NCBI GenBank assembly: GCA_964387595.1
Contig: CAYLYF010000004.1
Coordinates: 2,139 to 66,138, forward strand
Origin: an uncultured Thermodesulfobacteriota bacterium
Lineage (GTDB): Bacteria > Desulfobacterota > WTBG01 > CAIYCZ01 > CAIRTM01
DNA: 64,000 nt
Direction: 5' to 3'
The notes beneath the pieces were generated by a model. The model was not told the origin of the DNA. It saw nothing but the letters and a program-made list of their open reading frames with translations, and ran no database searches. This document shows positions 12,704 through 38,591 of the stretch, piece by piece (the stretch's first letter is position 1; the number at the start of each line of letters is the position of its first letter). Position numbers and translations under genes: made by a program.

Positions 12704-12730
12704 TATAATTAATAACCGAAGAAGAAGGGA

Positions 12731-17947: not shown

Positions 17948-17984
17948 TGACATTTAAAATTCTTTTTGGAAGGGGGATACATTA

Positions 17985-19265: not shown

Positions 19266-19295
19266 AATCATTAATTAAACAAAGGAGGGTTAGCT

Positions 19296-24655: not shown

Positions 24656-24699
24656 ATTGTTTTTCATTATATAACATAATCTTTGAGAAAGGAGGAGGC

Positions 24700-26268
24700 A
24701 TGAAAAACAAATTTAAGCAAAAAGGAGGAGTCTTCTTTTTGGCAGCACTTGTTTTTTTTGGGCTATGCGGAAAGGCCGGGGCGACAATTTCTCTGTATGA
24801 CGGAAAGCTGATATTAAGTGGTTTTGCCAAAGAAACAGTGTATGTGCGAACCGACCAGTCAAAACGTGAGCAGGAGTACAGGGATACGGCACTGGATTTG
24901 GCTAAAACGAGTCTCTACATTGAAGCACTGTATACCCTCAGAGAGTGCCCTGATCTGACGGTGCGAATGTTTACAAGCGTTAAGTGGTGGTATGAGTCAA
25001 CTTCAGGTTTTCTGGATGACAATCAGAGACGACACATTCTCCACCGACACCGTAAGCAATATACTTCGCCCCGAAAATTTGATGATGATATTTTAACGGA
25101 AGCTTATGTTGATATTATTAAAGGACCCTTTCAAGTCCGTCTGGGCAAGCAGATCGTTATCTGGGGTCAGCTGGATGTAGATAAAGTTGCCGATGTGGTT
25201 AACCCGATTGATTTCCGCTGGAATGTGCCGGGGATTGATGCCTGGGAAGAAATAAAAAAGGGACTGTGGATGGTTCGTATGTTCTACCAGACTGATTTGC
25301 CCGGAAATATACTTTTAGAAGGTATTTTTAACCCGGGATACTTTCAGGAGTTCCGGCTTCCCTATGATGGAACACACTGGGGGGTTCCCTATGACGAGCC
25401 TTTTGGCGCTTCAGGTATGACGATATTTGGATGGCAGCAGGAGAAGATGCACCGGGATGCCCGAAGATGGAGTCTGAGCGAAAACTATGAGTGGGGATTC
25501 AGGATCCGGGGGTATTCTCTGGGTATTGACTGGACTTTGCTTTTTTGGAATGCCCCTTCAGACAGTCCGACAGCTGATCCCCGGCGCCTGGGTGATTTCA
25601 GTATGCAGTATGTGTCGGGTGCTTTAGGCGCTGCGATCTTCGGAGGGTCTATCAATCCGGGCAACTGGCCGGAATACAAGGTGTACCGGTATAAACGGCT
25701 TCAGACCTTCGGCGGTACGGCCCAGTACTGTGCCGATTGGCTTCATGGCTCGATCTGGCGTCTGGAATGGTTTTACAACAAAGGGCAGCCCTTTAACCGG
25801 GGAGGAAGGGGAAGTGTTTCTGATATAGATGGCTGGACACGCCGAGATACCTATGGATTTGCAGTCTCCTGCTCTGACAAGTTCCGCCTTCCGGGTGTGA
25901 GCAACACTATCGGGCGGGGTAAGATGCTTGATGTGACGTTGACCTTTTTCTGGGATAAAATCAGGGATAACAACCATGATCTTTATAAAAGTGCCTTGAA
26001 TCACCGGCCCGGTGATTCAACGACTGAAGGGTTTTCAATTTTTCTCATGCAGATGATGTTCAGCGGAGAGTGGACTTTTACTTTTATCGGAAATTACAAG
26101 CCTCGCATCAACAAATATTTCGGCTGTCCGACTATGACCTATTCCTTTTCGGGAAGCCACTGGTATATGGATATAGGCTATAAATTTTACGGTGCAAGGC
26201 ACGGTTATAATTACGGTTCTTATCATGATAAAGATGCGGTCATATTCCGGCTGCGTTATGAATTCTAG
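24700..26268 (+). CDS. DUF1302 family outer-membrane protein (paralog 2)
   Basis: The likely start is at ATG 24700, after GGAGGAGG (MKNKFKQKGGVFFLAALVFFGLCGKAGA signal peptide). The ORF-track start at TTG 24646 lies inside the leader element. Confidence 0.6.
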   Translation: MKNKFKQKGGVFFLAALVFFGLCGKAGATISLYDGKLILSGFAKETVYVRTDQSKREQEYRDTALDLAKTSLYIEALYTLRECPDLTVRMFTSVKWWYESTSGFLDDNQRRHILHRHRKQYTSPRKFDDDILTEAYVDIIKGPFQVRLGKQIVIWGQLDVDKVADVVNPIDFRWNVPGIDAWEEIKKGLWMVRMFYQTDLPGNILLEGIFNPGYFQEFRLPYDGTHWGVPYDEPFGASGMTIFGWQQEKMHRDARRWSLSENYEWGFRIRGYSLGIDWTLLFWNAPSDSPTADPRRLGDFSMQYVSGALGAAIFGGSINPGNWPEYKVYRYKRLQTFGGTAQYCADWLHGSIWRLEWFYNKGQPFNRGGRGSVSDIDGWTRRDTYGFAVSCSDKFRLPGVSNTIGRGKMLDVTLTFFWDKIRDNNHDLYKSALNHRPGDSTTEGFSIFLMQMMFSGEWTFTFIGNYKPRINKYFGCPTMTYSFSGSHWYMDIGYKFYGARHGYNYGSYHDKDAVIFRLRYEF

Positions 26269-26291
26269 AATTAGGAAGGAGAGATTATTTT

Positions 26292-27560
26292 ATGAAAGTA
26301 ATAAATCACAAATTATGGCTTAACGGGCTGGCTGTATGGGCAGTATTATGGGCAGGTATTGTTTCAGCGGCGGAAATTGATTATCCGGTTGCAGCTTATT
26401 TCGGAGAGGAGCTTGCAAAGGTCAGGGCCTGGGAAAAAACATGGGCCGGCAAAAAGATCGACGGAAGCAATATTGATCAGGTTGCCGAGTTTTTGCCCGA
26501 ATCATTTGCCGGGATGTATAAAGAACCGGAAAAGTGGGCAGCTCCAGAAGAAGGTCTTTTTTTTAATATTGTTCCTTATCAGCGGGTTATGGACACTCAG
26601 GGCATGATTGATGCGACCCAAAAAAATGCGCCACTTGTTAAGACCAATGATGACGGAACCATAGTGAATTATGCGGGGCTGGCCGGGATCCCTTATCCGA
26701 CACCGAAAACAGGACTTGAAATTGCCTGGAACTTTGATTCTACCAATCATGGAGACAGCGCGCATTACAAACGGAATTCTCCCAATATTAACCCGAAAAC
26801 CCGGTCGGAGCGGTTTGGCGATCAGGAGCAATGGGAACTGTATTTTGTTCACCGTACAGAACTTGATCCTAAACCCCAAATTCCAAAGAACCCGAAGGGG
26901 TATCATCGCGGAACTTTTATCCATATGTGGGGTCCGCCGGAGTTCATGAATACGCGTTATTTCTCGATGCGGTTTATAGATCCGAAAAAAGATGATTCCA
27001 TGTATATGTGGTACCAGGCCTTTCGGCGCATCCGGAGAATGTCCACAAAACAACGTTCAGACGCGGTTGATGGAACAGACCTTATTTATGATGATGAGTT
27101 CTTTTGGGATGGTCATATTATGCGCAACACCTATGAATTTAAAGGCACCAGAGAACTGCTCTGCTCTCGTCATCAGGATATGAAAAAAGTAAGCCGCGCA
27201 ACCGGTCAGATTGTGCCCAATAACCTGGATCTGGAGCGGACAAAGCTGCTGGTTGTTGAAGTCATAAATAAAGACGCTAATTATATATATGGAAAGCGGG
27301 TCTGGTATGTGTGCCCGGAGACCTACATTATTCGCTGGACGGATATATATGATGAAAAGGGACGTTTCTGGAAGACCTTTGCCATGTTTACAAATGATGT
27401 AAAAACAAAAACCGGCGCTGTTAAAAATTTTATAGTGGGGTATTCGCTTATAGATTTTCAGCGAACTCACGGCGGGTATAATATCCAGGATATCCAGGGT
27501 ATCAGTATTGATGTGAACCCGAAAATTTTTACGATCAGTAATCTGCAGAGAACGTATTAG
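26292..27560 (+). CDS. DUF1329 family protein (paralog 2)
   Basis: It has a signal peptide and is co-linear with 17985-19265. Confidence 0.65.
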   Translation: MKVINHKLWLNGLAVWAVLWAGIVSAAEIDYPVAAYFGEELAKVRAWEKTWAGKKIDGSNIDQVAEFLPESFAGMYKEPEKWAAPEEGLFFNIVPYQRVMDTQGMIDATQKNAPLVKTNDDGTIVNYAGLAGIPYPTPKTGLEIAWNFDSTNHGDSAHYKRNSPNINPKTRSERFGDQEQWELYFVHRTELDPKPQIPKNPKGYHRGTFIHMWGPPEFMNTRYFSMRFIDPKKDDSMYMWYQAFRRIRRMSTKQRSDAVDGTDLIYDDEFFWDGHIMRNTYEFKGTRELLCSRHQDMKKVSRATGQIVPNNLDLERTKLLVVEVINKDANYIYGKRVWYVCPETYIIRWTDIYDEKGRFWKTFAMFTNDVKTKTGAVKNFIVGYSLIDFQRTHGGYNIQDIQGISIDVNPKIFTISNLQRTY

Positions 27561-27630
27561 TAATCAATTTCAATTAAAAATCGTTTTTATGGCTTTTTTA
27601 AATTGAAATTGATTCAGGAGGAAATGAAGT

Positions 27631-29718
27631 ATGGACAAAAAACCAAAAAACACGTTTATTACAGCCTGTCTTTTTTTGGCGGTTTTATTAGCCTTAACAG
27701 TTGTTTGTTCTGCTGATGCGCAAACAGTTCCTCCAGCGATTGAAAGCATAACAGCAGAAGACAACTCAATCTGGGAAAGGGTATCAACGGAAGGGTTCGG
27801 TAATTCCAATAATATCGGAATCAGTGCTTTGTGCGCGTATAATGATAATTTGTATGCCCTGACACGAAATGATGTTGAAGGGTTTCAGCTGTGGCAGGCC
27901 GGAACAGCCGGCTGGACCCGGCTGAGCATACCGGGTTTTACTGACAGCGTGCGTCAGCCTTTTTTAAACGGCGGTTACAGTGCCATGACTGTTTTTGACA
28001 ACAGGCTGTATGTGGCGGTTGGTTCCGGGTATGAGGGAGACATGCTTTTCCGCTCTGTCGGCCTGGAAATCTGGCGCTTTGACGGGACAGTCTGGCAGGC
28101 CGTGATCAGTGATGCAAGAAGTGATGGCCAAAAAGAATCCGGGCAGATTACATCTCTGAGCGATTGCGCTGCTGATGATACGGCCATGACTGCGCTGGTT
28201 TCTGACTCAACCAAGGCCTGGACAGTTAACCAGTGGGCCGGAGGTGTGCTGAAGATATCATCCGGTGACGGTGCGGGCCGGGTTTTTGATATTATCAGCA
28301 ATGATAATACGACTTTAACCATTCAGCAGAATGAGGCGGCAACAGAGGATGAATATACGATTTGCGCTTCTTTTGCGCCGGATGCAGACCGCTCGGAGAT
28401 GACCGTTGGCTCGGTTGCTCAGAGTGACAGCTATCTTGTGACGCTGGGCTGGAAAGCAAACGGTTTTGGAGAGATCTGGAACAAGAATCTTATTGGCTTT
28501 GAAGAATACCAGGGCCGTCTGTATCTTTCTGTCGCGCTAAATTATGCGGACGGGACCCGGGTTTGGCGAAGTTCCGACGGTCTTGAGTGGGAGCCGACTT
28601 CAGAGTACAGTTTTGGTCTGATGCATGGTTATGATATGGACGGGGTTGAAACCGGTTTTTGTTTGGTAGACGGTTATGAATACCGTAATGGCGGTCCGGT
28701 TTGTTCCAGCGCCACATATCTGCATGCCAGTGATGTGACGGGTACGGAAAGCCTGTTCGCGGGCGGAACCGGTTCGACCGGCTGCAATGGCCGAGGGGCA
28801 AGGGTATTAAAATATGACGGAACGGAGTGGGCGTTTTTAGTTGATTATTTTGTAGATACTGATGATGAGGGTACGAATGAAAACGGGCTTGGCGATGCAG
28901 CCGATTTTTTAAGCGCTAATTTTCAGGCCTGGTCCTGGGCGGATTATGATGACCATCTTTTTCTCGGTATCGCCCGGACAATTGGCAGCCGAATCATGTA
29001 TACTGCGACAGGAGACACGGCCAATGATTCATGGAAATATGCTGTGGGCGGTGACGGGCCGATGCCGGATGGTTTTGACGGGGCCGGTGGGCTTCTGGGA
29101 TATGGAAGGGGACTGGGATCTCATCTGTATACATATAATAATGCGTTGTGGGCAGCCTGTTTTGTAAACGCGGCTGTTGCAGGCTTACCGTGGAAACTTG
29201 ATGGGGCAGATATCTGGCGGGCAACCGGGTCAGCGGACGCTTTGGTTTGGACGCGGATAACGGACAACGCCTTCGGCAACCGGGGAATTATTACCTTTGG
29301 CAATCCTGTTGAATTTGACGATACCCTGTATGTTGGGGGTTCAAATATTTTTGGAAACTTTACGGAAAACGCTGCTCCAGACGGAAATGGATGTCTGGTT
29401 TTCAGGCTGGCCAGCCGTTCAGACTGGATCGATCTTGACAGCCTGGATGCAGACGAGAAGAAGTTTTTCATAGACCTGTCTTGGACGGTGGATACTTCAT
29501 CGACGATTAATGGATATAATGTGTATGTATCACGTAATTCTGATATGCTTTTTAAACGAAAGTTAAACCTGAGCCTGATTGAAGATACCAGTTTTATCCA
29601 CGGCATTGTATGGCCGGGAAGCAAGTGGTGGTATGTGATAGAAGCGGTCGGATCAGATGGTAAAACAGCAGTTTTTGGGCCAGTCCCATCGACGGCAAAG
29701 AAATTTTTTGAAAACTGA
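27631..29718 (+). CDS. secreted beta-propeller-like repeat protein with a C-terminal fibronectin-III-like domain
   Basis: It has a signal peptide (MDKKPKNTFITACLFLAVLLALTVVCSADA). Internal Trp/Gly-rich repeats recur (LYALTRND..GFQLWQAG, LYVAVGSG..LEIWRFDG). The C-terminus reads YNVYVSRNSDM...WWYVIEAVGSDGK. Confidence 0.4.
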   Translation: MDKKPKNTFITACLFLAVLLALTVVCSADAQTVPPAIESITAEDNSIWERVSTEGFGNSNNIGISALCAYNDNLYALTRNDVEGFQLWQAGTAGWTRLSIPGFTDSVRQPFLNGGYSAMTVFDNRLYVAVGSGYEGDMLFRSVGLEIWRFDGTVWQAVISDARSDGQKESGQITSLSDCAADDTAMTALVSDSTKAWTVNQWAGGVLKISSGDGAGRVFDIISNDNTTLTIQQNEAATEDEYTICASFAPDADRSEMTVGSVAQSDSYLVTLGWKANGFGEIWNKNLIGFEEYQGRLYLSVALNYADGTRVWRSSDGLEWEPTSEYSFGLMHGYDMDGVETGFCLVDGYEYRNGGPVCSSATYLHASDVTGTESLFAGGTGSTGCNGRGARVLKYDGTEWAFLVDYFVDTDDEGTNENGLGDAADFLSANFQAWSWADYDDHLFLGIARTIGSRIMYTATGDTANDSWKYAVGGDGPMPDGFDGAGGLLGYGRGLGSHLYTYNNALWAACFVNAAVAGLPWKLDGADIWRATGSADALVWTRITDNAFGNRGIITFGNPVEFDDTLYVGGSNIFGNFTENAAPDGNGCLVFRLASRSDWIDLDSLDADEKKFFIDLSWTVDTSSTINGYNVYVSRNSDMLFKRKLNLSLIEDTSFIHGIVWPGSKWWYVIEAVGSDGKTAVFGPVPSTAKKFFEN

Positions 29719-29817
29719 TAAAGGTTGTATTTCTTGATCGGAAGCGTGACGCGCATACGCCAAGTCCTGGAGTGAAGTTAAGTAATATGTATGCAAAATA
29801 ATCCGGATTAATTTAAG

Positions 29818-29859
29818 CGATACCCCCCTCAGCCTGCTGTGGGGGGTATTCTTGTTTTA
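29818..29859 (+). terminator. rho-independent terminator (GATACCCCCC ... GGGGGGTATT followed by CTTGTTTT)
   Basis: A hairpin with a U-rich tail, about 100 nt after the stop of the beta-propeller gene. Confidence 0.55.
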
Positions 29860-30104
29860 TAATTATTTTCCAGGAAGAGGAGGGTTTGGGGGATGAAAAT
29901 ATTAAATAAGGAGTAAGCTTTTTATGTTTTTAATCACGATAACGCAACCAGATATCTCTCCAGTTGAAAACGAGTACACTGCCGCAGTTTTTCTCATCAC
30001 ACCTACAGCTTAAGCTTTCAGTGGTTAAAGTAAAAAGATAATTGCTATCGCTTTTTCCTTCTGGTTTTATAATAACGTAATAGCTGATGGCGCAGAGTGG
30101 GTTT

Positions 30105-30185
30105 TATGGGCCGGGCATTCAGGGTATCCGTATTTATGTGAATCCGAAAGATTTTACGGTCAGTAATCTGCAGAGGACGTACTGA
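30105..30185 (+). pseudogene. Remnant of the 3' end of a DUF1329 gene (...GIQGIRIYVNPKDFTVSNLQRTY*)
   Basis: About 80 nt, near-identical to the last 25 codons of 26292-27560 (IQGISIDVNPKIFTISNLQRTY) and similar to 19200-19265. There is no upstream ORF. Confidence 0.7.
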
Positions 30186-30211
30186 TGTAATTGCCTTTCA
30201 TGGGATCAATT

Positions 30212-30259
30212 AAAAACGGTCTCAGACCTTCTGTGCAGAAGGTCTGAGACCGTTTTTAT
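30212..30259. terminator. Bidirectional terminator, a perfect palindrome AAAAACGGTCTCAGACCTTCTG-TGCA-CAGAAGGTCTGAGACCGTTTTT
   Basis: A 17-bp stem flanked by A5 and T5, lying between the DUF1329 remnant (+) and the 3' end of the minus-strand lipoprotein gene. Confidence 0.75.
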
Positions 30260-30262
30260 ATA

Positions 30263-30928
30263 TTATTTCAGGAGTGCTTCTATAACCGGGAGAGTCGCAT
30301 TGATCATAACTTCAGTCAACGATTTAAGAGCCGGATGAGAGATGATGATATCGTTCATGGATCTTGCGTTATCATAATAGCTTTTTATAATTGCTTTTCC
30401 AACGGCATTTTCCGCAAGGACTTCATCCCTGAACCGGTGAAGGGTATCCAGCCGTGTATCGCCTTCCCCTAAAACAGTTCTGGCCGGGCAGACGGGATCG
30501 TCGCCATCGTCAGTGCAGTCCTGCTTGATTGCCTGTGCAATCGGGTAAGCCGGAGTTTCACCCGTGTATTTTGTAAGAGTGCATCCGGAGAATGTGAAAA
30601 GGCTTGCCGGCATGGACTCATCAAGATCTCCCAGATCCTCAGTATACATATATTTTGTTCCCGCAAACACTCTGGGGTATATTCTAAAGGGAACCGGGTC
30701 TTCACCTTCAGATGTGCTGTTTCCGGAAGTATAGCAGGGAAACATAGAGCTGTCGCGCTCCGTGGTTTCTGTGATTACCCAGGTTGCGGTGCTGCTATCA
30801 TCATATGTGACATCCCAGGTGCCGACCATAAAGTCACAGTCCTGAGCCGACACGGCTCCTGATAAAAATAGAAAAAATAAAATAGTACCCAAAGCAAGTT
30901 TTTTCATAACGGTAGCCTCCTTCATCAT
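30263..30928 (-). CDS. hypothetical lipoprotein. Its C-terminal ~60 aa are shared with the FG-GAP paralog.
   Basis: It has a signal peptide plus lipobox-like sequence (MKKLALGTILFFLFLSGAVSAQDC). Its C-terminal TRLDTLHRFRDEVLAENAVGKAIIKSYYDNA matches ENLETVRVFRDKVLLSSQGGRSMVALYYKHA of 30953-33037. Confidence 0.5.
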   Translation of the reverse strand: MMKEATVMKKLALGTILFFLFLSGAVSAQDCDFMVGTWDVTYDDSSTATWVITETTERDSSMFPCYTSGNSTSEGEDPVPFRIYPRVFAGTKYMYTEDLGDLDESMPASLFTFSGCTLTKYTGETPAYPIAQAIKQDCTDDGDDPVCPARTVLGEGDTRLDTLHRFRDEVLAENAVGKAIIKSYYDNARSMNDIIISHPALKSLTEVMINATLPVIEALLK

Positions 30929-30952
30929 AATTAATGTTGTTTAAAAAGGTTT

Positions 30953-33037
30953 TTATTTCAATACAGAACAGGCAGAATTAATATGCCCGCTGTCTGCAAT
31001 GCTATCCAGACGTTTATGGTTGTTTGAGAAACCGTGTAGACTGAAGATTTCATTACCAGTTCGGGTAATTATTTTAGAGCAGTCTTTTTTTAAGTCTAAA
31101 CCGGCATGTTTTGATAGTTCTTTAATCAGCTCAATTCCCTGCTGGATAACTGCTAGAGGAAATACTGTAGCATGGTTTTCTTGCGTTCTTTTTATCTCCG
31201 GAATAAGGGTGCTCAGCAGGTTCCTGGCCTTTGTTTTCAGCTGGGGTTCTCTGAGAAGAATGCCGATGATTTCAGCCGCATGTTTATAATACAGCGCAAC
31301 CATTGATCGACCACCTTGAGAAGATAAAAGGACCTTGTCCCGGAAAACTCTTACAGTTTCTAAGTTTTCCTGCTGTCCGCTCATTAACATACTGATGGGG
31401 CATAACTGTGAAGTTTTGTTTTCGTAGACAAAAATTGAGCCTGAAGAACTGTCTTTATCTACACTGGTATCGTATATGGTTGCGATTATATCCAGGTCAC
31501 CATCACCATCGATATCATAAATATCAGGTTCTCCCGGCATGCATGCCGGATCTTTGTACAGGGCAGCACGTTTAAAGGCCAGGCAGTCATCCTCAAGGCC
31601 TTGTGATTCGTAATAATATACAGCTCCCTTTCCGTCACCCGACACAACCAGATCCGGAAGGCCGTCACCTGAGATATCAGCTGCCTTGACAGCCGCAGGG
31701 GATCCCTGGGAGTAGGCTCCTCCGGGACGGTCAACAGCAAAGGGGTCTGCAGCTACCGCCTCGTCGTCATCTGGATCCAGTTCCGGATTTCCGGAATCTA
31801 TGGTGATTGGATTCCAGTTTTCTGTAACTTGAGGATTGTCCGGAACATTAAAGTAGTAGATACCCGAAGGCCATACTCTGTTATCGCTTTTATAGTCCTG
31901 ATGATTATGGCTTGTAATGAGTATTTCATCATCCGAATCATCATCAATATCCGAACAGAATACGTCAAATCCTTTGCCAATGGGGTTTGACGATTTATAC
32001 CAGTTTTCTATGGTATAACGGTTCCACGGCTGTTTAAGAACCGATACACCTGATGTCCTGCCCGGATTTTCAAACCAGGAAAGGGTATCCCCTCTTATAT
32101 CTGATCCGTCCAGCCCCCCTTTGACAATCAGGGTCCCCGGATTTGTGATCAGGAACTGAGGTGCCAGAACATCAAGGTCGCCGTCTTTGTCTACATCAAA
32201 AAAAGCTATAAAAAAACCGCCTCCCTCACCGATTTCATAAGGGCCGGAATATCCCGAGGGAAAGGTTTCCCTGTCTGTTTCCCGTCTGAACCACTCTACC
32301 CATCGGTACTGCTGATCTGTTTTCTGCCAGTACCACATGTGGGATTTTGTGGTGACGAAGTCCTCCAGTCCGTCGCCGTCTATATCATGGAATTCTGCTT
32401 TATGATAGGTCTCGATACCATCTGTACAGTTATCCGACGAGCATGGACATTTTCCATTTATTTCCCCTTGAAAAATGATCTGTTTTTTCCAATTTTCCGG
32501 ATCGGTGATATCTCCTCCGTTGTTTTCCAGATAATATATGCCGGAGACTCCGCAGGTAGACCACGCGGCCAGGTAGTTGTCCATGACCATAATATCTATG
32601 TCGCTGTCATTATCCATGTCCCTCAGCACCATGTCATTTGGGAAGGAAAAGGTATCGTTAATAATGGTCTGAGTCCAGGCGTCAAGGTTTGAGCCGTTCC
32701 AGGTAAATACTGCGATGGCCCCGTCAAAAATATTAAAATCAACAGATTGTCCCATCAGAGAGGAACAGACCACTTCAGGGATGCTGTCCTGATTCAGATC
32801 ACCCACAGCAACAAAGCCGGGTGCTTTGTAACCGGGGACATCGGGTTTCACCGGCAGCGGTGTTTTTATGCCGGTAATTGTGTGTCGAACAAATTTTAAT
32901 GACAGCAATGGGTCTTTGGAAATATTGACACACTGAGCGGTTGCAGTAGATAGGCTGAACAGTATTGTACACAAACAAAAACAGGCTGCACAAGACTCTT
33001 TTCGAACAAAAAAAGCATAAATGTTACTTTTTTTCAT
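30953..33037 (-). CDS. secreted FG-GAP / VCBS-repeat protein (paralog of 19296-21278) with a different, alpha-helical-looking C-terminus
   Basis: Its N-terminal two-thirds are co-linear with 19296-21278 (FVRHTITGIKTPLPVKPDVPGY versus FTRHTVTGITTPQPVLPDVPGF; DIDGDGDLDI repeats). It has no TSP3 repeat. Confidence 0.65.
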   Translation of the reverse strand: MKKSNIYAFFVRKESCAACFCLCTILFSLSTATAQCVNISKDPLLSLKFVRHTITGIKTPLPVKPDVPGYKAPGFVAVGDLNQDSIPEVVCSSLMGQSVDFNIFDGAIAVFTWNGSNLDAWTQTIINDTFSFPNDMVLRDMDNDSDIDIMVMDNYLAAWSTCGVSGIYYLENNGGDITDPENWKKQIIFQGEINGKCPCSSDNCTDGIETYHKAEFHDIDGDGLEDFVTTKSHMWYWQKTDQQYRWVEWFRRETDRETFPSGYSGPYEIGEGGGFFIAFFDVDKDGDLDVLAPQFLITNPGTLIVKGGLDGSDIRGDTLSWFENPGRTSGVSVLKQPWNRYTIENWYKSSNPIGKGFDVFCSDIDDDSDDEILITSHNHQDYKSDNRVWPSGIYYFNVPDNPQVTENWNPITIDSGNPELDPDDDEAVAADPFAVDRPGGAYSQGSPAAVKAADISGDGLPDLVVSGDGKGAVYYYESQGLEDDCLAFKRAALYKDPACMPGEPDIYDIDGDGDLDIIATIYDTSVDKDSSSGSIFVYENKTSQLCPISMLMSGQQENLETVRVFRDKVLLSSQGGRSMVALYYKHAAEIIGILLREPQLKTKARNLLSTLIPEIKRTQENHATVFPLAVIQQGIELIKELSKHAGLDLKKDCSKIITRTGNEIFSLHGFSNNHKRLDSIADSGHINSACSVLK

Positions 33038-33476: not shown

Positions 33477-33926
33477 ATGGACTCATACTGTAAAAATTTT
33501 AATCCAAAAGATTCAATGGCCAATTTGTTGAACACGACCACGAGGACACTTTCAACCCGGCTTCAGAGTTTATTTACCAGTCACGGGATCGATGTTACCT
33601 CGGAGCAGTGGATGATACTGCTTCTTTTGTGGCAGGAAGACGGCCGTTCTCCCTACCTTCTGGCGGATATTATTGTTAAAGACCGTGCTGCCATCACAAG
33701 GCTCATTGATGGCCTTGAAAGGCGGAATCTTGTGGTGAGAATAAAGGACAAAAATGATTCCCGTCAAAAACAGGTCTATTTAACGCCCAAGGGAAAAGCC
33801 CTGGAAAAAGAACTGATTCCGCTGGGTCTGTCCAACATGGCAAAAGCAAAGCAGGGGATCAGCACTGAAGAAATTGATATCTGTAAAGCCGTATTAAAAA
33901 AGATCTACCAGAATCTAATTGAGTAA
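33477..33926 (+). CDS. MarR family transcriptional regulator
   Basis: Winged-HTH region (SEQWMILLLLWQEDGRSPYLLADIIVKDRAAITRLIDGLERRNLVVRIKDKNDSRQKQVYLTPKG). Confidence 0.8.
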   Translation: MDSYCKNFNPKDSMANLLNTTTRTLSTRLQSLFTSHGIDVTSEQWMILLLLWQEDGRSPYLLADIIVKDRAAITRLIDGLERRNLVVRIKDKNDSRQKQVYLTPKGKALEKELIPLGLSNMAKAKQGISTEEIDICKAVLKKIYQNLIE

Positions 33927-34006
33927 TTCTTTTATGGTTATAATTGATATATCAATCATAATGGTTTGCTTTTATTTTTGCTTGAGAAAACACGAAAGGA
34001 GATTTT

Positions 34007-34798
34007 ATGAGATTTAATAACAAAAATATCATCGTAACCGGGGCTGGAACGGGAATCGGAAAAGGGATCGCCCATCGATTTGCAGCTGAAGGTGGAAATG
34101 TGGTGATTGCAGACCTGAACCGGGAAAATGGGGAGCGTGCCGTACGGGAGATTAAAGAACAGGGGGGATCCGCCCTTTATGTACTAACTGACGTATCAAA
34201 GGAAAAAGACATTGAAAACCTGATTTTAGAAGCGACAGAAGCCTTTGGTCCTTTGCACGTTGCGGTATCAAATGCCGGTATTACGGAATCAGCCTCGTCT
34301 GCTCTTGATATCTCTTCGCAGGAATGGGATCAGGTGTATGCCGTAAACACAAAAGGGTCTTTTCTGTTTTGCCGGGCCAGTGCCAAAAACATGATGGAAA
34401 ACGATATTAAAGGTGCAATTGTAACCTTATCCACGCTGATGGCACGGGGTGGTAAGGGCATGTCCGGGGCGTATGCCTCTTCAAAAGCAGCGGTAATCAT
34501 GTTTACCAAGACCCTGGCCAAGAGCCTTGGAGCATCGGGAATTCGAGTAAATTGTGTGTCCCCGGGAATTGTGGCTACCGAAATCTACAATAAGGTTGAA
34601 AAGGAAATGATGATGGAGAAAGGCTCTTTTGCCGACTGGCTGGTGGAAGAATCAATCAACAATGGTCAGCTTTTGATTCCCCGTGGAGGCGCACCGGAAG
34701 ACATTGCTTCAGCAGTGGCTTTTCTAGCGTCCGAAGATGCATCCTATATTACTTCTCAAAACCTGAGTGTGGACGGCGGCATGGACTGGTGCTGGTAG
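34007..34798 (+). CDS. SDR family oxidoreductase
   Basis: TGAGTGIGKGIA Rossmann motif, NAG, and a YASSKAAV catalytic YxxxK. Confidence 0.85.
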   Translation: MRFNNKNIIVTGAGTGIGKGIAHRFAAEGGNVVIADLNRENGERAVREIKEQGGSALYVLTDVSKEKDIENLILEATEAFGPLHVAVSNAGITESASSALDISSQEWDQVYAVNTKGSFLFCRASAKNMMENDIKGAIVTLSTLMARGGKGMSGAYASSKAAVIMFTKTLAKSLGASGIRVNCVSPGIVATEIYNKVEKEMMMEKGSFADWLVEESINNGQLLIPRGGAPEDIASAVAFLASEDASYITSQNLSVDGGMDWCW

Positions 34799-34872
34799 CA
34801 GACTGTTACAGGGTGCTGGTTTTAAAAATTGAATCGAAGATAACAAAAAAATATAGTCTGGAGGAAAAAATA

Positions 34873-35874
34873 ATGGCAGAGGATAATAAAAAGATAGCCT
34901 TTACGGTTGATGCGGAGCGGTGTGTTGGATGCGGGGCCTGTGTGGATGCCTGTCCGATGAAAATCCTGGCTCTTGAGGATGGTATTTGTATCATCACCGA
35001 TATCTCAAAATGCCTAGAATGCGGTACCTGTATTAAAGAGTGTCCAACAGATGCGATCACCATACCGGGCGTTAAGCTGTCTCCCAAAGAAAAGAAGGGG
35101 AAAAAAGATGATGCCTCGCCTGCAGCAAAGAAGACGGCCGGGGATACTCCGGCTTCGCAGAAGTTCACCCCGATCCTGCAGCATCTGACCGATCTAATAA
35201 CTCAGGAGCTTGCGCCGGTTCAGGTCTTTGAACACGAGGGCACGGATGTCACCAGTTTGAACGAATTTGAGCTTGAAGGGGAGTCCTGCTTTTACCGGGT
35301 TTACAAAGCCGATAAACTTGAAAAAATCGGTATCTCCCGCATGAATTTTTACGGAACCATGGTTGCCGACGTTGTGTCAATCACCCCGGGCCCGGAATAT
35401 GATATGCCCTATTACATTATTGACTGGGATGAATCAGATGAGCATATCTTTTTTATTTGTGACCTGATGCCCAGCGTTGACGTGGCACAAAATCTGGAAC
35501 AGCTGCAAAACTATTTTTATGATCCGCTGGAAGATCTGTACAACACCTACTGTGAAGTTCCCGGAATGAAACCCAGTGTGTTCCACTGGGTCCGTGCGAT
35601 CCACTCTCCTTACCTGATCACCGGGACTGTTGAAAAAACAGGAAATAATGTGGATATGATATATCAGTGTGCTGTGGACTATTTTAATGCCTGGCTGAAA
35701 ATTTATAAAGAAGCCCAACCGCAGGATCCCGGATCCGATTATATGAAACGGGTTCATGAACGGCGGAAAAACATGCGCGCACTTTACCGGGAATACGATC
35801 CCGGTGTCGGAACCCTCAATAAGTTTTTGGGTGATGAGATGGCGGATACCTCTCTCGCCATTATTGAACCGTAA
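34873..35874 (+). CDS. 2x[4Fe-4S] ferredoxin domain fused through a Lys-rich linker to an FDBR-like (bilin-reductase-family) domain (putative)
   Basis: CVGCGACVDACP and CLECGTCIKECP motifs, followed by the linker KEKKGKKDDASPAAKKTAGD, then ITPGPEYDMPYYIIDWDESDEHIFFICDLMP, which aligns with the FDBR core. The start was chosen at ATG 34873, after GGAGGA. The ORF-track start at 34789 overlaps the SDR gene. Confidence 0.45.
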   Translation: MAEDNKKIAFTVDAERCVGCGACVDACPMKILALEDGICIITDISKCLECGTCIKECPTDAITIPGVKLSPKEKKGKKDDASPAAKKTAGDTPASQKFTPILQHLTDLITQELAPVQVFEHEGTDVTSLNEFELEGESCFYRVYKADKLEKIGISRMNFYGTMVADVVSITPGPEYDMPYYIIDWDESDEHIFFICDLMPSVDVAQNLEQLQNYFYDPLEDLYNTYCEVPGMKPSVFHWVRAIHSPYLITGTVEKTGNNVDMIYQCAVDYFNAWLKIYKEAQPQDPGSDYMKRVHERRKNMRALYREYDPGVGTLNKFLGDEMADTSLAIIEP

Positions 35875-35892
35875 ATTGGAAAGGACAACACC

Positions 35893-36600
35893 ATGACCGA
35901 AACTATAGATTTTGCTGGAAAAGCAAAAACATTTATGAATGCCATCCCCATGCAGCCGGTAGAAATAGATCCGAAGCTCAGTCGGATCGAAGCTGAGGGC
36001 GGCATCATTGATCTGGAAATATTTAAGGCGGAAAAGATCGAAAAAATTGTTTTCTGCACCATTAATATGCATGAGACCGGGGTGGTGGAGTCAACGGTTA
36101 TGATCTGGCCGGATGATAATCACAACCTGCCGATCCTGTGGTGCAACCTGACGATTGTGCCGGAAGTCATGAACGTACCTGTTTTTGACTTTGTGCCCAT
36201 GATGGATTTTGTGGTATGGCCCGGATATGCAGAAAAATACGTTGAATGTATTAAAGACTTAAAAGATAATGCGATTGAAATCCTTGGTGATATGGTGATC
36301 GACAAAGCCGCTAATCTTCCCTCGCTATCCGTTTATACCCTTTCTCCGTATAAGCTCGTTGCCATGATCTCAGATGACGGGATAGCAAAGGTTCCCGAGG
36401 TCACGGGAGAATATATTGCAAAATATGCCGAACTGTGGCTGCAGGCTGAACCGATTGTCGGGGATGAAGATAGGGCCTATTATCTTAGAAAAAAAGCAGC
36501 CACCAGCAAGCTAATGAAAGCAAATGATCCCGGTTATCACTTTATGGTGGATGTGTTCGGAGAGGAAACCACGCATAAAGTTTTTGATCTGGTCTTTTAG
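35893..36600 (+). CDS. ferredoxin-dependent bilin reductase family (PcyA/PebA/HY2-like) protein (putative)
   Basis: At 235 aa it is FDBR-sized. WPDDNHNLPILWCNLTIVPEVMNVPVFDFVP aligns with PebA [32 protein letters not shown]. The C-terminal FMVDVFGEETTHKVFDLVF matches the FDBR C-terminal motif. Confidence 0.5.
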   Translation: MTETIDFAGKAKTFMNAIPMQPVEIDPKLSRIEAEGGIIDLEIFKAEKIEKIVFCTINMHETGVVESTVMIWPDDNHNLPILWCNLTIVPEVMNVPVFDFVPMMDFVVWPGYAEKYVECIKDLKDNAIEILGDMVIDKAANLPSLSVYTLSPYKLVAMISDDGIAKVPEVTGEYIAKYAELWLQAEPIVGDEDRAYYLRKKAATSKLMKANDPGYHFMVDVFGEETTHKVFDLVF

Positions 36601-36686
36601 GTGAGGGCAGGCAAAAGTCGGTTATTGTGATATACTTAACTAACTTGTCTTAAAGATATAATAAGGTTTTTATATAGGAGCAGCAT

Positions 36687-38591
36687 ATGTTCGGATGGGC
36701 AGGAAAAATAATGGTCGTTGATCTGACCGAAAGGGAGATCTCTTTCCTTAAAACAAAGGATTATTCAGATAAATATATCGGTGGACTGGGGGTGGGGCTG
36801 AAGCTGTACTGGGACATGGCCTCAGGAAAGGTCAATGCGTTTCACCCGGATAATCCGCTTATTTTAATGACAGGGCCTTTGGCCGGAACAAAAGCGCCTT
36901 CAGCGCCAAGGTTTCTTGTCTGCGGAAAATCACCCTGTATTTATCCAGAAACTTTTGTGAATGCCAATATGGGGGGGCACATTGCTGTTGATCTCAAAAA
37001 AGCCGGATATGACGGTATGGTTATTAAAGGCCGGGCGGACAGCCCTGTCTATTTAAGTATTGAAAATGAAAAGGTGGAAATAAAAGATGCCGGGCATTTG
37101 TGGGGCCTTGGCAATTTTAAAACACGTGAGATCCTCCAGAATGAGTACAGCGGTAAACATGGCATCCTCTCAATCGGTCCTGCGGGAGAGAACCTGACCT
37201 GTTTTGCCATCCTTTTTACGGATGAAGGCAGTACCGCATCCATGGGCTTTGGTGCGGTCATGGGCTCAAAAAATTTGAAAGCCATTACGGTTCGCGGTAC
37301 AGGGAAGATAATAGCGGCCGATGATGAAAAAATAAAAACCATCAGGAGTCGGTTTAAGGCCATGATGGGAGAGGGTTATTTTCATCTCTTTAATAACCCG
37401 ATTATCATTCCAGGATCTGAAGTGGTGAAGCGGGTCCACTGCAGCGGCTGTCCCCAGGGCTGCTGGCGGTCCCTGCATAGAAGTCCTGCCGGAACAGAGG
37501 ATATCCGGAAATGTCAGATCGGAAACTTTTACATGATGTGGGATAAAAAACTGCATGGCAGTTTTACCGAGGCAAGTTTTGAGGCGCCCATGCTGGCCAA
37601 TGATTTCGGGGTATGCGCGCTGGATATGGTCTTTCTTCTGATGTGGATGGATCAGTGCGCACAGCAGGGAATAATCACCCAAAAAGAAACCGGTCTTGAT
37701 TTTTCACAGATGGGAAGCCGGGAGTTTCTGGAAGGCGTGCTGCAGAAGATCTGTAACAAGGAGGGCTTCGGAGAGATCCTTTCTCAGGGCGTTCTTCGTG
37801 CATCAGAAGCTTTTGGGGAGAAGTCGAAAAAGATAACAGCCAACATGCTGACACACAGCGGGCGGGCAATCGCATACGGGCCCAAAGTATTCAGTATGTC
37901 AGCGGCTATTTATGCCACAGAACCCAGACCTTTTATTACCGAACTTCATGAGATCTGTGAACCTCTGACCAAATGGGCTCTGTGGTATTTATCAAAAGGG
38001 GAAAAGAGCTATTTATCCACAGATGTTTTGAAAAAGATCGCAAAAGCGTTCTGGGGCAGTGAACAAGCCGTTGATTTTTCAACTGTTGACGGCAAGGCGC
38101 TTGCGGCCGTTAAGGTCCAGAACAGGCAGTTTATAAAAGAGTCTTTAAACCTGTGTGATTTTGCCTGGCCGGTTTATGACCCTGCTGACAGAGATGACCA
38201 TGTGGGTGACCCGACCTTAGAGGCCCAGCTTTTTTCCGCGGTTACCGGAAAAGAGCTTGATCCCGAGGCATTTGACCTGATTGGAAACCGCCTTTTTACC
38301 CTGAACCGGATGATCCTTCTTCGGGAAGGAAGAAACGGGCGTGAAGATGATGTGCTGCCGGATTTTATGTTTTTAGAACGCGAAGAGATGATCGCAGATG
38401 TTTTTGGCATGTATAATCCGGAACTTTATCTTCCGGGGAAGGGGGAAACGGTGATTTCCCGAAAAGGAAAAGCAGTTGATAAAGATGAGTTTGAAAAGAT
38501 GATGGATGAATATTATGCGCTAAGGGGCTGGGAGGTTCAGACCGGTCTGCCTGAAAAAGAGACTCTGGATAGGCTGGGGTTGAAAGATTAA
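36687..38591 (+). CDS. aldehyde:ferredoxin oxidoreductase (tungsten-containing AOR family)
   Basis: AOR N-terminal domain (MFGWAGKIMVVDLTEREISF...GGLGVGLKLYWD...LILMTGPLAGT). The 634-aa length is typical. Confidence 0.8.
   Translation: MFGWAGKIMVVDLTEREISFLKTKDYSDKYIGGLGVGLKLYWDMASGKVNAFHPDNPLILMTGPLAGTKAPSAPRFLVCGKSPCIYPETFVNANMGGHIAVDLKKAGYDGMVIKGRADSPVYLSIENEKVEIKDAGHLWGLGNFKTREILQNEYSGKHGILSIGPAGENLTCFAILFTDEGSTASMGFGAVMGSKNLKAITVRGTGKIIAADDEKIKTIRSRFKAMMGEGYFHLFNNPIIIPGSEVVKRVHCSGCPQGCWRSLHRSPAGTEDIRKCQIGNFYMMWDKKLHGSFTEASFEAPMLANDFGVCALDMVFLLMWMDQCAQQGIITQKETGLDFSQMGSREFLEGVLQKICNKEGFGEILSQGVLRASEAFGEKSKKITANMLTHSGRAIAYGPKVFSMSAAIYATEPRPFITELHEICEPLTKWALWYLSKGEKSYLSTDVLKKIAKAFWGSEQAVDFSTVDGKALAAVKVQNRQFIKESLNLCDFAWPVYDPADRDDHVGDPTLEAQLFSAVTGKELDPEAFDLIGNRLFTLNRMILLREGRNGREDDVLPDFMFLEREEMIADVFGMYNPELYLPGKGETVISRKGKAVDKDEFEKMMDEYYALRGWEVQTGLPEKETLDRLGLKD

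Follow-up and report, generated by a model that had tools for sequence, protein, structure and literature searches.

Ferredoxin-dependent bilin reductases (FDBRs) make bile-pigment chromophores in cyanobacteria and plants. The closest described relatives of the proteins reported here are PebB and HY2 of this family. Both aspartates of the PebB active site (Asp-99 and Asp-219 in GtPEBB) are essential by mutagenesis, and a further residue, Arg-215, is strictly conserved in the A-ring-reducing PebB/HY2. Outside phototrophs, pre-PcyA genes are known from heterotrophic bacteria and from MAGs, some of them deltaproteobacterial, where they cluster with a gene for a dedicated iron-sulfur protein (Rockwell et al. 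2023, PMC10151467; Frascogna et al. 2026, PMC13446030). Such clusters are defined by a heme oxygenase together with two V4R proteins and a BBAG globin, or a B12 protein plus a globin (PMC10151467, PMC13446030). All characterised proteins with the FDBR fold bind tetrapyrroles (PMC13193486). Two further clades, uncharacterised and hard to place (Frascogna 2026, PMC13193486), may or may not include the families described below. The same fold occurs in red chlorophyll catabolite reductase (RCCR), a plant enzyme acting downstream of an O2-dependent oxygenase, which carries out a ferredoxin-dependent, cofactor-free reduction of a formyl-bearing linear tetrapyrrole that is catabolic rather than biosynthetic. 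Bacteria also reduce a bilin anaerobically through the gut bilirubin reductase system BilR/BilS/BilQ, which includes a MarR-type regulator and a flavodoxin-like protein. Its reductase, BilR, belongs to the Old-Yellow-Enzyme-type flavoproteins and has no kinship to the FDBRs; the system would be the functional analogue of the present one if the substrate here is a bilin.

We analysed a 64,000-nucleotide stretch of DNA (the window) from an uncultured Thermodesulfobacteriota bacterium. The first-pass annotation had proposed that three genes at 34873-38591 may form the core of a ferredoxin-driven reductase system. The three open reading frames are as it gave them, and all the peptide strings that it quoted are present in the translations. 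The genes stand, but not the extent: they belong to an island of about 37 kb with a third FDBR paralog, and the module that contains them starts further upstream, with a MarR gene that the annotation did not mention. The module consists of the following features:

33477-33926, + strand: MarR-family regulator, first of five genes (Pfam MarR, 44.7 bits)
34007-34798, + strand: classical NAD(P)-dependent SDR (adh_short_C2, 205 bits)
34873-35874, + strand: FDBR-A, ferredoxin-FDBR fusion, 333 aa
34873-35079, + strand: N-terminal 2x[4Fe-4S] ferredoxin domain of FDBR-A, residues 1-69 (CxxCxxCxxxCP pair, Fer4)
35080-35154, + strand: Lys-rich flexible linker of FDBR-A, residues 70-94 (pLDDT <50, variable)
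35155-35874, + strand: FDBR-fold catalytic domain of FDBR-A, residues 95-333 plus stop (PF05996, Foldseek)
35893-36600, + strand: FDBR-B, stand-alone FDBR-fold paralog, 235 aa (PF05996, AF2/Foldseek)
36687-38591, + strand: aldehyde:ferredoxin oxidoreductase (AOR) family enzyme, 634 aa, W or Mo pterin (AFOR_N, AFOR_C)

FDBR-A is a ferredoxin-FDBR fusion, as had been proposed. Some gene callers start the protein at the GTG at 34789, but GGAGG lies 9 nt upstream of the ATG at 34873 and favours that start, which gives 333 aa. The two CxxCxxCxxxCP clusters are exact (C17/C20/C23/C27-P28 and C47/C50/C53/C57-P58); this domain matches Pfam Fer4 (E=1.3e-14) and, by Foldseek, the HgcB and FwdG ferredoxins. 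In the family alignment (A1), conservation breaks down and length varies only in the linker, which is disordered in the AF2 model. Residues 141-326 match PF05996 (Fe_bilin_red) with 46.7 bits (E=4e-12) against a gathering cut-off of 31. The best Foldseek match of the FDBR domain is GtPEBB (6qx6, E=6e-11), and HY2 (6kmd), PcyA (2g18), RCCR (2zxk) and PebA (2x9o) are also found. For the AF2 models of both FDBR-A (pLDDT 85) and FDBR-B (pLDDT 90), only FDBR/RCCR structures appear at E values of 1e-11 to 1e-9, with CPO next; the FDBR-A model has a pTM of 0.72, and its mutual placement of the two domains is unreliable. Profile-to-PDB alignments showed that the motif blocks singled out in the first-pass annotation are true FDBR active-site blocks. 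They place Asp184 on the central catalytic Asp (GtPEBB Asp-99) and Asp309, within 'NDPG', on GtPEBB Asp-219/HY2 Asp-256. Both are invariant across 27 diverse family sequences.

FDBR-B is homologous to the FDBR domain of the fusion (hhalign probability 98%, 20% identity). It matches PF05996 over residues 15-228 (39.2 bits, E=8e-10), and its model (pLDDT 89.7) superimposes on GtPEBB (Foldseek E=9e-12, TM 0.83). Asp212 in its 'NDPG' is invariant, while the central Asp site is occupied by Asn85, a likeness to land-plant HY2, and the HY2 Asp-116 site is Thr.

In both profile and structure comparisons the two proteins match PebB/HY2 (GtPEBB 6QX6, tomato HY2 6KMD) best. They have in common with these an alpha/beta/alpha sandwich and the sites of the Asp pair, one on the central strand and one in a 'K/N-D-P' loop, at an identity of only 16-18%. 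The ferredoxin is a fused or adjacent 2x[4Fe-4S] protein rather than a free plant-type [2Fe-2S] one, and, unlike PebB/HY2, the new enzymes have no heme oxygenase, phycobiliprotein or phytochrome context. As in the pebA-pebB operon, FDBR-A and FDBR-B are adjacent divergent same-fold paralogs in one operon, an arrangement suggesting, by analogy, that one scaffold undergoes two two-electron reductions in turn. They are nevertheless not PebA/PebB orthologs (NCBIfam PebA, 24.6 bits against a cut-off of 263), the island has a third paralog, and FDBR-A often occurs without FDBR-B. RCCR is likewise close in fold (Foldseek E of about 1e-10), but its model PF06405 scores 17.4 bits, under the cut-off of 24.9. 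None of the genes that define the pre-PcyA clusters is present in the island, and the pre-PcyA iron-sulfur protein is encoded by a separate gene, with no fusion reported. No natural ferredoxin-FDBR fusion is described in the literature searched in full text, and the public names of the fusion proteins are '4Fe-4S binding protein' or 'PreA subunit'; the proposal of a new architecture is consistent with the literature and names checked.

The fusion family comprises 86 clusters, all metagenomic and mostly from Thermodesulfobacteriota MAGs, and the host lineages are, by taxonomy, typically anaerobic; that of the present bacterium is related to sulfate reducers. The ferredoxin is fused to FDBR-A in 22 loci and is a separate gene in at least 10; in the split loci (L024-27, L031-34, L038, L042) an orthologous ferredoxin gene of 72-103 aa precedes an unfused FDBR-A gene by about 20 nt. 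One of these (L042) has unrelated surroundings with no other redox gene nearby. This pattern indicates that the ferredoxin and FDBR-A parts are tied together. The other module genes repeatedly accompany the fusion, in varying arrangements. FDBR-B, a family of at least 137 clusters, lies directly 3' of FDBR-A in 18 of the 31 loci with room for it and is missing from 13. In 9 of 32 related loci the gene immediately 5' of the SDR/Fd-FDBR genes encodes a MarR homolog, and a MarR gene is likewise the first of a distant FDBR-like cluster (L040); the match of the island's MarR to the BilQ model is generic (31.6 bits against a cut-off of 125). SDR orthologs (62-81% identity) occur within 2 kb of FDBR genes in 18 of the 32 loci, upstream, downstream or divergently oriented, and a more distant SDR (39%) in L033 brings the total to 19. 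An SDR upstream and an AOR downstream, both ferredoxin-linked, had been proposed; the positions hold, but the SDR is of the NAD(P) type, with generic PDB and NCBIfam matches only.

The AOR had been called a tungsten enzyme. Its family is secure (AFOR_N 218.7 bits, AFOR_C 170.4 bits; a CSGCPQGC cluster motif of the CxxCxxxC form; nearest PDB relatives AORs, with BamB scoring lower), but the metal, W or Mo, cannot be read from the sequence. As for its co-occurrence with the FDBR homologs, an AOR is found in 8 of 32 loci, in four arrangements, and is absent from most: orthologs lie near FDBR-A in L010, L015, L028, L029, L032, L034 and L039, and a more distant one (27%) in L035. L010 and L015 have the AOR after FDBR-A without FDBR-B, L039 has a divergent AOR-SDR pair, and one distant FDBR lineage combines MarR with a Fer2/MoCoBD molybdenum hydroxylase in place of the AOR. 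Given these counts, neither the AOR nor FDBR-B is obligatory. No other known family explains the homolog contexts examined.

Upstream of the module, the island contains the following features:

3019-7476, + strand: GlcDEF-like trio, two FAD_binding_4 flavoproteins and a Fer4_8/CCG iron-sulfur subunit (Pfam)
7510-8265, + strand: conserved 251-aa protein of no known family (homologs in 6-7 FDBR loci)
8427-16187, + strand: accessory enzymes, namely PNPOx-like, geranylgeranyl-reductase (GGR)-like flavoprotein, FMN_red, family-III CoA-transferase, Amidohydro_2, thiolase and Flavodoxin_5 protein (Pfam)
16373-21278, + strand: DUF1302, DUF1329 (LolA-like) and FG-GAP protein set, copy 1 (Pfam)
21693-22502, + strand: FDBR-C, FDBR-family gene, 269 aa, with an apparent N-terminal hydrophobic (membrane-anchor-like) segment (PF05996)
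22645-23916, + strand: second GGR-like FAD oxidoreductase (Pfam FAD_binding_3, 62.5 bits)
24646-27560, + strand: DUF1302 and DUF1329, copy 2 (Pfam)
27631-29718, + strand: 695-aa unknown protein
30263-30928, - strand: 221-aa protein with a hydrophobic N-terminus
30953-33037, - strand: FG-GAP protein (Pfam)

Nearly all genes in 3019-33037 have homologs next to FDBR genes in other MAGs. Homologs of the GlcDEF-like trio, whose NCBIfam GlcD/TfrB matches are sub-threshold only, flank FDBR genes in at least 12 other loci, and most of the accessory enzymes, sub-threshold in NCBIfam except for the thiolase subfamily, have homologs beside them. The first DUF1302/DUF1329/FG-GAP set has counterparts adjoining FDBR genes in L017, L018, L024 and L028, and the 24646-33037 gene set in L012, L018, L020, L024 and L028. 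Excerpts of the literature tie DUF1302/DUF1329 to hydrophobic-substrate metabolism, including that of fatty acids, alcohols and monoterpenes. The second GGR-like protein (TIGR02032, 82.7 bits against a cut-off of 158.8) has homologs in 9-11 FDBR loci. The 251-aa protein has neither a Pfam nor a PDB match; kinship with the FDBR/CPO proteins is unsupported, since hhalign against FDBR-B gave a probability of 0.9%.

FDBR-C, which the first-pass annotation did not mention, matches PF05996 with 63.6 bits (E=2.8e-17) and, by phmmer, GtPEBB (6e-08), PcyA (2e-06) and PebA (5e-05). It represents a separate family of at least 184 clusters, found within the same module in L036. The central Asp is present, and Gly replaces the C-terminal Asp. 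Since FDBR-B lacks the central acid and FDBR-C the C-terminal one, both may act differently or be non-reductases. Across the wider FDBR-like radiation the active-site triads are very diverse, and in some relatives, such as the 'LRL' and 'FQF' leaves, all three positions lack an acid. A crude NJ tree placed the new families outside the PcyA/PebA/PebB-HY2 clade, and with 15-47 bits in the NCBIfam PebA/PcyA/PebB models (cut-offs 206-327) the FDBR proteins of the island appear, by sequence, to match no named FDBR clade.

We lean towards a single joint explanation, in which FDBR-A would be a cofactor-free reductase of the FDBR superfamily, flexibly tethered to its own two-cluster [4Fe-4S] ferredoxin; 33477-38591 would be a regulated redox module of MarR, SDR, Fd-FDBR-A, FDBR-B and AOR; and roughly 37 kb of the window (about 1840-38591) would be one conserved catabolic or detoxification island. 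Starting from the domain identities, folds, conserved acids, fused/split ferredoxin pattern and gene neighbourhoods observed here, we infer the electron route, reaction type and substrate from the chemistry of the family. Most likely, electrons from ferredoxin are used, without a cofactor, to reduce C=C bonds of a conjugated substrate that is imported. A low-potential donor would charge both clusters, the prime candidate being the AOR of the module acting on an aldehyde; the ferredoxin domain would then swing onto the FDBR domain and pass single electrons directly to the bound, extensively conjugated substrate. Asp184 and Asp309, with water, could serve as proton donors in a two-electron reduction via a substrate radical. 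FDBR-B (Asn85/Asp212) and the putatively membrane-anchored FDBR-C might carry out further reductions of the same scaffold with other regiospecificity, as PebA and then PebB do, and the SDR and AOR might interconvert an alcohol/aldehyde/acid function on the same molecule.

As the substrate class we tentatively prefer an imported linear tetrapyrrole, possibly with a formyl or alcohol group. Against the joint explanation, the CoA-transferase, thiolase, Amidohydro_2, GGR-like and DUF1302/1329 proteins would fit aromatic or isoprenoid catabolism equally, and the site of Arg-215 is Tyr305 in FDBR-A and Met208 in FDBR-B. Nearly as likely is the same chemistry on an imported hydrophobic conjugated alcohol or aldehyde (an apocarotenoid/retinoid-type polyene, a phenylpropanoid or another polyphenol), taken by the SDR and AOR from alcohol to aldehyde to acid, with the CoA-transferase, thiolase and Amidohydro_2 degrading the product; we rate this possible, if somewhat doubtful. 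It gains from the catabolic context (MarR/TetR regulators, SDR, AOR or Mo-hydroxylase, family-III CoA-transferase, thiolase, Amidohydro_2), the two GGR-like flavoproteins and two DUF1302/DUF1329 sets with the metabolic ties mentioned above, a context free of tetrapyrrole-related genes, the lack of conservation of the PebB/HY2-specific Arg-215, and the diversity of the triads. Yet the known FDBR/RCCR/CPO-fold proteins all act on tetrapyrroles, cofactor-free one-electron reduction by ferredoxin demands a very extended pi system, and the accessory-family matches are all generic, under equivalog cut-offs.

Pfam annotation of the island and of ten related contexts turned up no gene for a heme oxygenase, globin/BBAG, V4R protein or phytochrome, and the genomic context gives no pointer to a bilin. 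With the hosts typically anaerobic, it is plausible that the substrate is not biliverdin. Ordinary bilin biosynthesis in the pre-PcyA style, in which heme-oxygenase biliverdin would become a phytobilin for a sensor or globin encoded elsewhere, would accord with PF05996 members carrying the catalytic Asp pair and with the active FDBRs of non-phototrophs clustered with a dedicated Fe-S protein (PMC10151467). We consider it improbable, as the island and the Pfam-annotated related loci also lack the B12-binding protein plus globin, heme oxygenase depends on O2, a chromophore pathway has no need of three paralogs, an AOR, an SDR and catabolic genes, and the NCBIfam scores are far below cut-off. Least probable of all, the FDBR-fold proteins would be ligand-binding, carrier or scaffold proteins that, for example, pass a hydrophobic intermediate to the AOR/SDR while the ferredoxin serves another partner, as the acids missing from FDBR-B, FDBR-C and the 'LRL' and 'FQF' leaves might suggest, but both FDBR-A acids are invariant, and FDBR-A in particular is what the ferredoxin is fused to or lies next to, L042 included.

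Returning to the preferred reading of a tethered reductase module, the fusion, two further FDBR copies and the alcohol/aldehyde-oxidising enzymes, clustered without a heme oxygenase, point to an undescribed pathway in these bacteria, one that is probably O2-independent.

The first-pass annotation had placed a ferredoxin (Fd) fused to a domain resembling ferredoxin-dependent bilin reductases (FDBRs), a stand-alone paralog of that domain and a tungsten aldehyde:ferredoxin oxidoreductase (AOR) at 34873–38591. The observation is real, and its interpretation was upheld in every part open to testing by Pfam, AlphaFold2 and Foldseek, active-site alignments and gene neighbourhoods. The genes concerned are as follows.

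33477–33926, + strand: MarR gene (ORF list)
34007–34798, + strand: gene for a short-chain dehydrogenase/reductase, SDR (ORF list)
34873–35874, + strand: FDBR-A, the Fd–FDBR fusion, 333 aa (ORF list; Fer4 and PF05996)
35893–36600, + strand: FDBR-B, the stand-alone paralog, 235 aa (ORF list; PF05996)
36687–38591, + strand: AOR, 634 aa, a complete AFOR_N plus AFOR_C enzyme (ORF list)
21693–22502, + strand: FDBR-C, a third paralog, 269 aa (PF05996; hydrophobic N-terminal segment)

The MarR, SDR, FDBR-A, FDBR-B and AOR genes constitute an operon-like five-gene unit, in which the intergenic gaps are 18–86 nt; a 776-nt gap follows the AOR gene, and the upstream region is divergent. A GGAGG sequence 9 nt before the ATG at 34873, together with the N-termini of 22 homologs, supports the start originally assigned to FDBR-A over that of a longer GTG-initiated ORF.

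We examined the FDBR assignment at the levels of profile and fold. FDBR-A, FDBR-B and FDBR-C scored 46.7, 39.2 and 63.6 bits, respectively, against PF05996 (Fe_bilin_red), for which the gathering threshold is 31 bits, and chance is excluded for the Pfam matches of FDBR-A, FDBR-B and the AOR. AlphaFold2 models built from family alignments had pLDDT values of 85.4 (FDBR-A) and 89.7 (FDBR-B), with disorder in FDBR-A limited to residues 1–4 and the linker at 70–94. Both are predicted to adopt the FDBR alpha/beta/alpha sandwich with its central antiparallel sheet. When compared with the PDB by Foldseek, the best 45 matches were chains of the FDBR/RCCR fold, including the PcyA-like subunit of the algal Ycf2–FtsHi complex; GtPEBB, tomato HY2, PcyA, RCCR and PebA were matched at E values of 1e-11 to 1e-9, with TM scores up to 0.84, and the next match, coproporphyrinogen oxidase (CPO), was far weaker. 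FDBR-A and FDBR-B align with each other by hhalign with a probability of 98% and 20% identity. The two are true, though distant, paralogs, as had been claimed.

The ferredoxin half of the fusion is equally clear. Two exact CxxCxxCxxxCP motifs (C17–C27/P28 and C47–C57/P58) lie in a region that matches Fer4 (E=1.3e-14) as well as Fer4_7 and other Fer4-type models of Pfam, and FDBR-A thus has what defines a clostridial-type 2x[4Fe-4S] ferredoxin, namely two such motifs within about 55 residues. Both motifs are kept in 22 fused homologs, and in Foldseek the N-terminal domain matches the HgcB and FwdG ferredoxins. The Fd is fused to FDBR-A in 22 loci and encoded by an adjacent separate gene in at least 10. 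In this split form (loci L024–27, L031–34, L038 and L042), a 2x[4Fe-4S] Fd gene of 72–103 aa lies ~20 nt upstream of an unfused FDBR-A of about 240 aa, as at 9740–11465 of L034 (GCA_900174595.1); L038 is on the same contig as L033, and the split-form loci represent nine distinct contigs. Where compared, the separate Fds share 47–61% identity with the fused domain, and in L042 Fd and FDBR-A make up a two-gene unit surrounded by unrelated transporter genes. That one Fd/FDBR-A pair occurs in both fused and split forms is classical evidence that its members are direct functional partners. In FDBR-A, only the linker is both variable (family alignment) and disordered (AlphaFold2 model), which fits an electron-donor domain that moves on a tether. 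Pfam detected no cofactor-binding domain in the FDBR part of FDBR-A. Fusion and adjacency thus lend genomic support to the view that the Fd may serve as the direct one-electron donor to a cofactor-free FDBR-A. The literature searched contained nothing relevant on a natural ferredoxin–FDBR fusion or on FDBRs in sulfate reducers. At 10001–11003 of another related locus, L021, the Fd–FDBR gene is split into overlapping ORFs (10001–10357 and 10224–11003), reflecting a frameshift or an assembly error.

Profile-to-PDB alignments of FDBR-A and FDBR-B showed that the motif blocks singled out in the first reading fall on genuine FDBR active-site elements. The catalytic positions are fully present in FDBR-A and half retained in each of its paralogs. 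The invariant Asp184 of FDBR-A aligns with the central Asp on strand S4 (GtPEBB Asp-99, PcyA Asp105), and its Asp309, invariant within 'NDPG', aligns with the Asp of the helix-connecting loop (GtPEBB Asp-219, HY2 Asp-256, PebS Asp-206). FDBR-B has the loop Asp (Asp212, likewise invariant in 'NDPG') and carries Asn85 at the central site; FDBR-C retains the central Asp and has Gly in place of the loop Asp. The central Asp has been described as 'critical in all FDBRs', and Asp-99 and Asp-219 of GtPEBB were found essential by mutagenesis (PMC6755814). In having Asn at the central site, FDBR-B resembles land-plant HY2, otherwise the only reported case, and Thr68 of FDBR-B occupies the site of the compensating Asp of HY2. 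By contrast, Arg-215 (GtPEBB numbering), which lies four residues before the loop Asp and is strictly conserved in PebB/HY2, is absent from both proteins, being replaced by a nearly invariant Tyr305 in FDBR-A and an invariant Met208 in FDBR-B.

How do these proteins relate to the named FDBR lineages? With the NCBIfam models, FDBR-B scored 24.6 bits for PebA (cut-off 263) and 15.3 for PcyA (cut-off 206), and FDBR-C scored 47 for PebA (cut-off 263) and 42 for PebB (cut-off 327); no FDBR model was among the best 25 families for FDBR-A. The RCCR model PF06405 has a threshold of 24.9 bits, below which FDBR-A fell (17.4 bits), and FDBR-B was unmatched. In a neighbour-joining tree and BLAST clustering of the 150 best representatives and partial PDB reference sequences, each of the three families stands apart from the other two and from the PcyA/PebA/PebB/HY2 clade; the tree is crude, with BLOSUM distances, partial references rebuilt from HMMER output and a root on partial RCCR. 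In this tree, FDBR-A sits in a broad radiation of uncharacterised proteins of 230–260 aa with highly varied active-site triads. On the evidence of profiles and tree, A, B and C belong to the FDBR superfamily, yet to no named lineage of it.

The pre-PcyA proteins of heterotrophs deserve separate comparison. Clusters of pre-1/3 PcyA encode HO (heme oxygenase), a separate Fe-S protein, two V4R proteins and a BBAG globin, and those of pre-2 PcyA encode a B12-binding protein and a globin (PMC10151467). None of these defining neighbours (HO, V4R, BBAG globin; B12-binding protein) occurs in the island described below or in the annotated related loci. We considered one FDBR-like relative, P0360, as a bridge to pre-PcyA, because its 'N-E-S' triad resembles that of pre-1, but its context (MarR, three FDBR-like genes, a Mo-hydroxylase and DUF2284) lacks the pre-1 cluster. 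Frascogna et al. 2026 (PMC13193486) mention two uncharacterised FDBR clades of uncertain placement; the supplement text names no taxa matching the A, B or C families.

The AOR belongs to its family by AFOR_N (218.7 bits), AFOR_C (170.4 bits) and a CxxCxxxC cluster motif (CSGCPQGC). The epithet 'tungsten' goes further than the sequence does, from which the metal, W or Mo, is not readable. The enzyme falls below the specific NCBIfam equivalog cut-offs (293 vs 868). As clues to the substrate, the AOR and SDR were uninformative, giving only generic PDB and NCBIfam matches (AOR ahead of BamB; SDR to the glucose-DH/FabG subfamily).

We counted neighbours over 32 non-redundant loci. FDBR-B lies immediately 3′ of FDBR-A in 18 of the 31 loci with room for it, an SDR is present in 19 of the 32 (62–81% identity, with one distant case at 39%) and MarR in 9. 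An AOR accompanies FDBR-A in 8 of the 32 loci. Four arrangements were seen:

A–B–AOR: the window and L029
A–AOR, no B: L010 and L015
AOR several kb away: L028, L032, L034 and L035
divergent AOR–SDR adjoining A: L039

At 1–2130 of L039, about 6 kb from the AOR of that locus, there is an ABC transporter whose binding protein is an SBP_bac_11 member, of the molybdate/tungstate-type family. A separate, distant FDBR-like lineage was found at 1640–8552 of L040 (GCA_035528335.1) and also in L041. Its gene order is MarR, FDBR-like, a 129-aa unknown, a Fer2+MoCoBD molybdenum hydroxylase, DUF2284 and two further FDBR-like genes. The hydroxylase, of the aldehyde-oxidoreductase type, takes the place of the W-type AOR of the window, which hints at non-orthologous replacement of the aldehyde-oxidising partner.

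The conserved context extends well beyond the unit first noticed. We compared each ORF of the window by BLAST with the related loci and scanned the upstream half with Pfam. Almost all genes of 1840–38591 recur beside FDBR genes in other MAGs; this stretch is one island of about 37 kb, far larger than 34873–38591. The recurring genes encode TetR; two FAD_binding_4 proteins with a CCG Fe-S subunit (GlcDEF-like); a 251-aa unknown; a PNPOx-like protein; two geranylgeranyl-reductase (GGR)-like flavoproteins; FMN_red; Amidohydro_2; a thiolase; and a Flavodoxin_5 protein. The family-III CoA-transferase of the island had no homolog in the related loci. Two paralogous sets also lie in the island:

16373–21278: first DUF1302/DUF1329 (LolA-like)/FG-GAP-repeat set
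24646–33037: second such set

Both sets probably encode machinery of the outer membrane or periplasm that serves a hydrophobic substrate, and homologous sets adjoin FDBR genes in L017, L018, L024 and L028. The hydrophobic N-terminal segment of FDBR-C looks like a membrane anchor. In L036, FDBR-C is part of a compact version of the island module, and L034 contains both modules within 17 kb.

Several of the accessory genes merit individual mention. The 251-aa protein (7510–8265, + strand) is without a match in Pfam or the PDB and is conserved in 6–7 FDBR loci; we considered it as a fourth paralog of the FDBR/CPO fold, having seen by eye an 'AWPxNPxxPG' stretch reminiscent of the FDBR core, but hhalign against FDBR-B gave a probability of only 0.9%, so that homology is not supported. 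Within 1840–2988 (+ strand), the TetR gene (198 aa) precedes an ORF of 144 aa whose only matches are to C-terminal domains of TetR; this ORF may represent a second TetR that is truncated or has a wrongly called start. A 338-aa protein at 15171–16187 (+ strand) carries at its N-terminus a Flavodoxin_5 domain, the type found in the protoporphyrinogen oxidase HemG. The protein, which is also conserved beside FDBR-C in L036, offers a possible link to tetrapyrroles. The accessory genes gave no further substrate clues, as their NCBIfam scores were all below equivalog cut-offs, bar a generic thiolase subfamily. There were no tRNA genes or Rfam families at the gathering threshold across 1–64000, and promoter and terminator scans were uninformative.

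At 90% identity, the fusion family falls into 86 clusters, almost all of them of 324–336 aa with Fer4+PF05996. The FDBR-B family has at least 137 clusters, and that of FDBR-C, separate from both, at least 184 metagenomic clusters. An exhaustive HMM search of 1.84 billion proteins with the FDBR-A domain profile returned 165 representatives at E<=1e-3 and 12 at E<=1e-30, making the FDBR-A family rare. Among 185,579 species genomes scanned, we found 27 loci, none in a cultured organism; the loci come from MAGs labelled Thermodesulfobacteriota or 'delta proteobacterium', except for one Spirochaetota SAG, one 'Proteobacteria' MAG and two unclassified bins. The database names encountered for these families are '4Fe-4S binding protein', 'ferredoxin', 'PreA subunit' or 'hypothetical', the first three being carried by fusion proteins; as an exception, a few JGI records label FDBR-C homologs 'PebA'.

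FDBRs use no cofactor: the bound bilin receives single electrons from ferredoxin directly and is protonated, by way of a substrate-radical intermediate, by water and conserved Asp residues (PMC6755814). In the mechanism that we propose, the tethered two-cluster Fd would store both electrons and pass them to the pocket of FDBR-A, where Asp184 and Asp309 would act as proton relays. The clusters would be recharged by a low-potential donor, for which the co-encoded AOR is the obvious candidate. FDBR-B and FDBR-C might catalyse further, different reductions, by analogy with PebA/PebB, while the SDR and AOR would act on an alcohol or aldehyde group of that same substrate and MarR would be its sensor.

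What the substrate might be is suggested by fold and by context. Since all characterised proteins of the FDBR/RCCR/CPO fold bind tetrapyrroles (PMC13193486), fold precedent favours a linear tetrapyrrole, which we hold as a tentative choice at somewhat less than even confidence. The gene context favours an imported hydrophobic compound bearing an aldehyde group; as a speculation, formyl-bearing bilins such as chlorophyll catabolites would meet both. Another conjugated compound would suit the context and depart from the fold precedent, and seems to us possible, if rather doubtful. The probability left over goes to something that we have not thought of, or to the proteins not being reductases, a reading against which stand the two Asp residues of FDBR-A and its dedicated Fd. 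Classical chromophore biosynthesis is very improbable: HO is absent from the Pfam-scanned island and from ten annotated related contexts (a statement about gene context), so that at this level nothing indicates an HO-supplied biliverdin or bilin, and the annotations of the island and related loci include no globin, V4R, phycobiliprotein or phytochrome domain.

As the boldest reading, and with much reserve, we suggest that A, B and C, with a dedicated Fd and W- or Mo-aldehyde oxidoreductases, could be the reductive core of an oxygen-independent pathway dismantling environmental linear tetrapyrroles (bilins, formyl-bearing chlorophyll catabolites) in Thermodesulfobacteriota of sediment and soil, or else the first FDBR-fold enzymes acting on a non-tetrapyrrole polyene. 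Either way, they would represent an anaerobic, HO-independent branch of the family and, if so, the kind of 'archae-FDBR' stock that specialists say they seek (PMC13446030).

No description of this Fd–FDBR/AOR/SDR system was found in the literature searched. FDBRs have been known for making chromophores in oxygenic phototrophs, to which some aerobic heterotrophs were added in 2023; to our knowledge, they always act downstream of an O2-requiring HO and always with a free ferredoxin. New here, in typically anaerobic lineages, are the tie to a low-potential two-cluster Fd by fusion or adjacency, the presence of three paralogs and a catabolic-looking island that has AOR and SDR genes but no HO. If the enzymes are active, the fusion would offer a self-sufficient means of studying C=C reduction by a radical route without cofactor and a possible tool for producing bilins without an auxiliary ferredoxin. 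They could also reveal an oxygen-free degradation of bilins, chlorophyll catabolites or other conjugated pigments, a process that, as far as we know, is poorly understood under anaerobic conditions, and would inform the question whether the FDBR fold is older than oxygenic photosynthesis.
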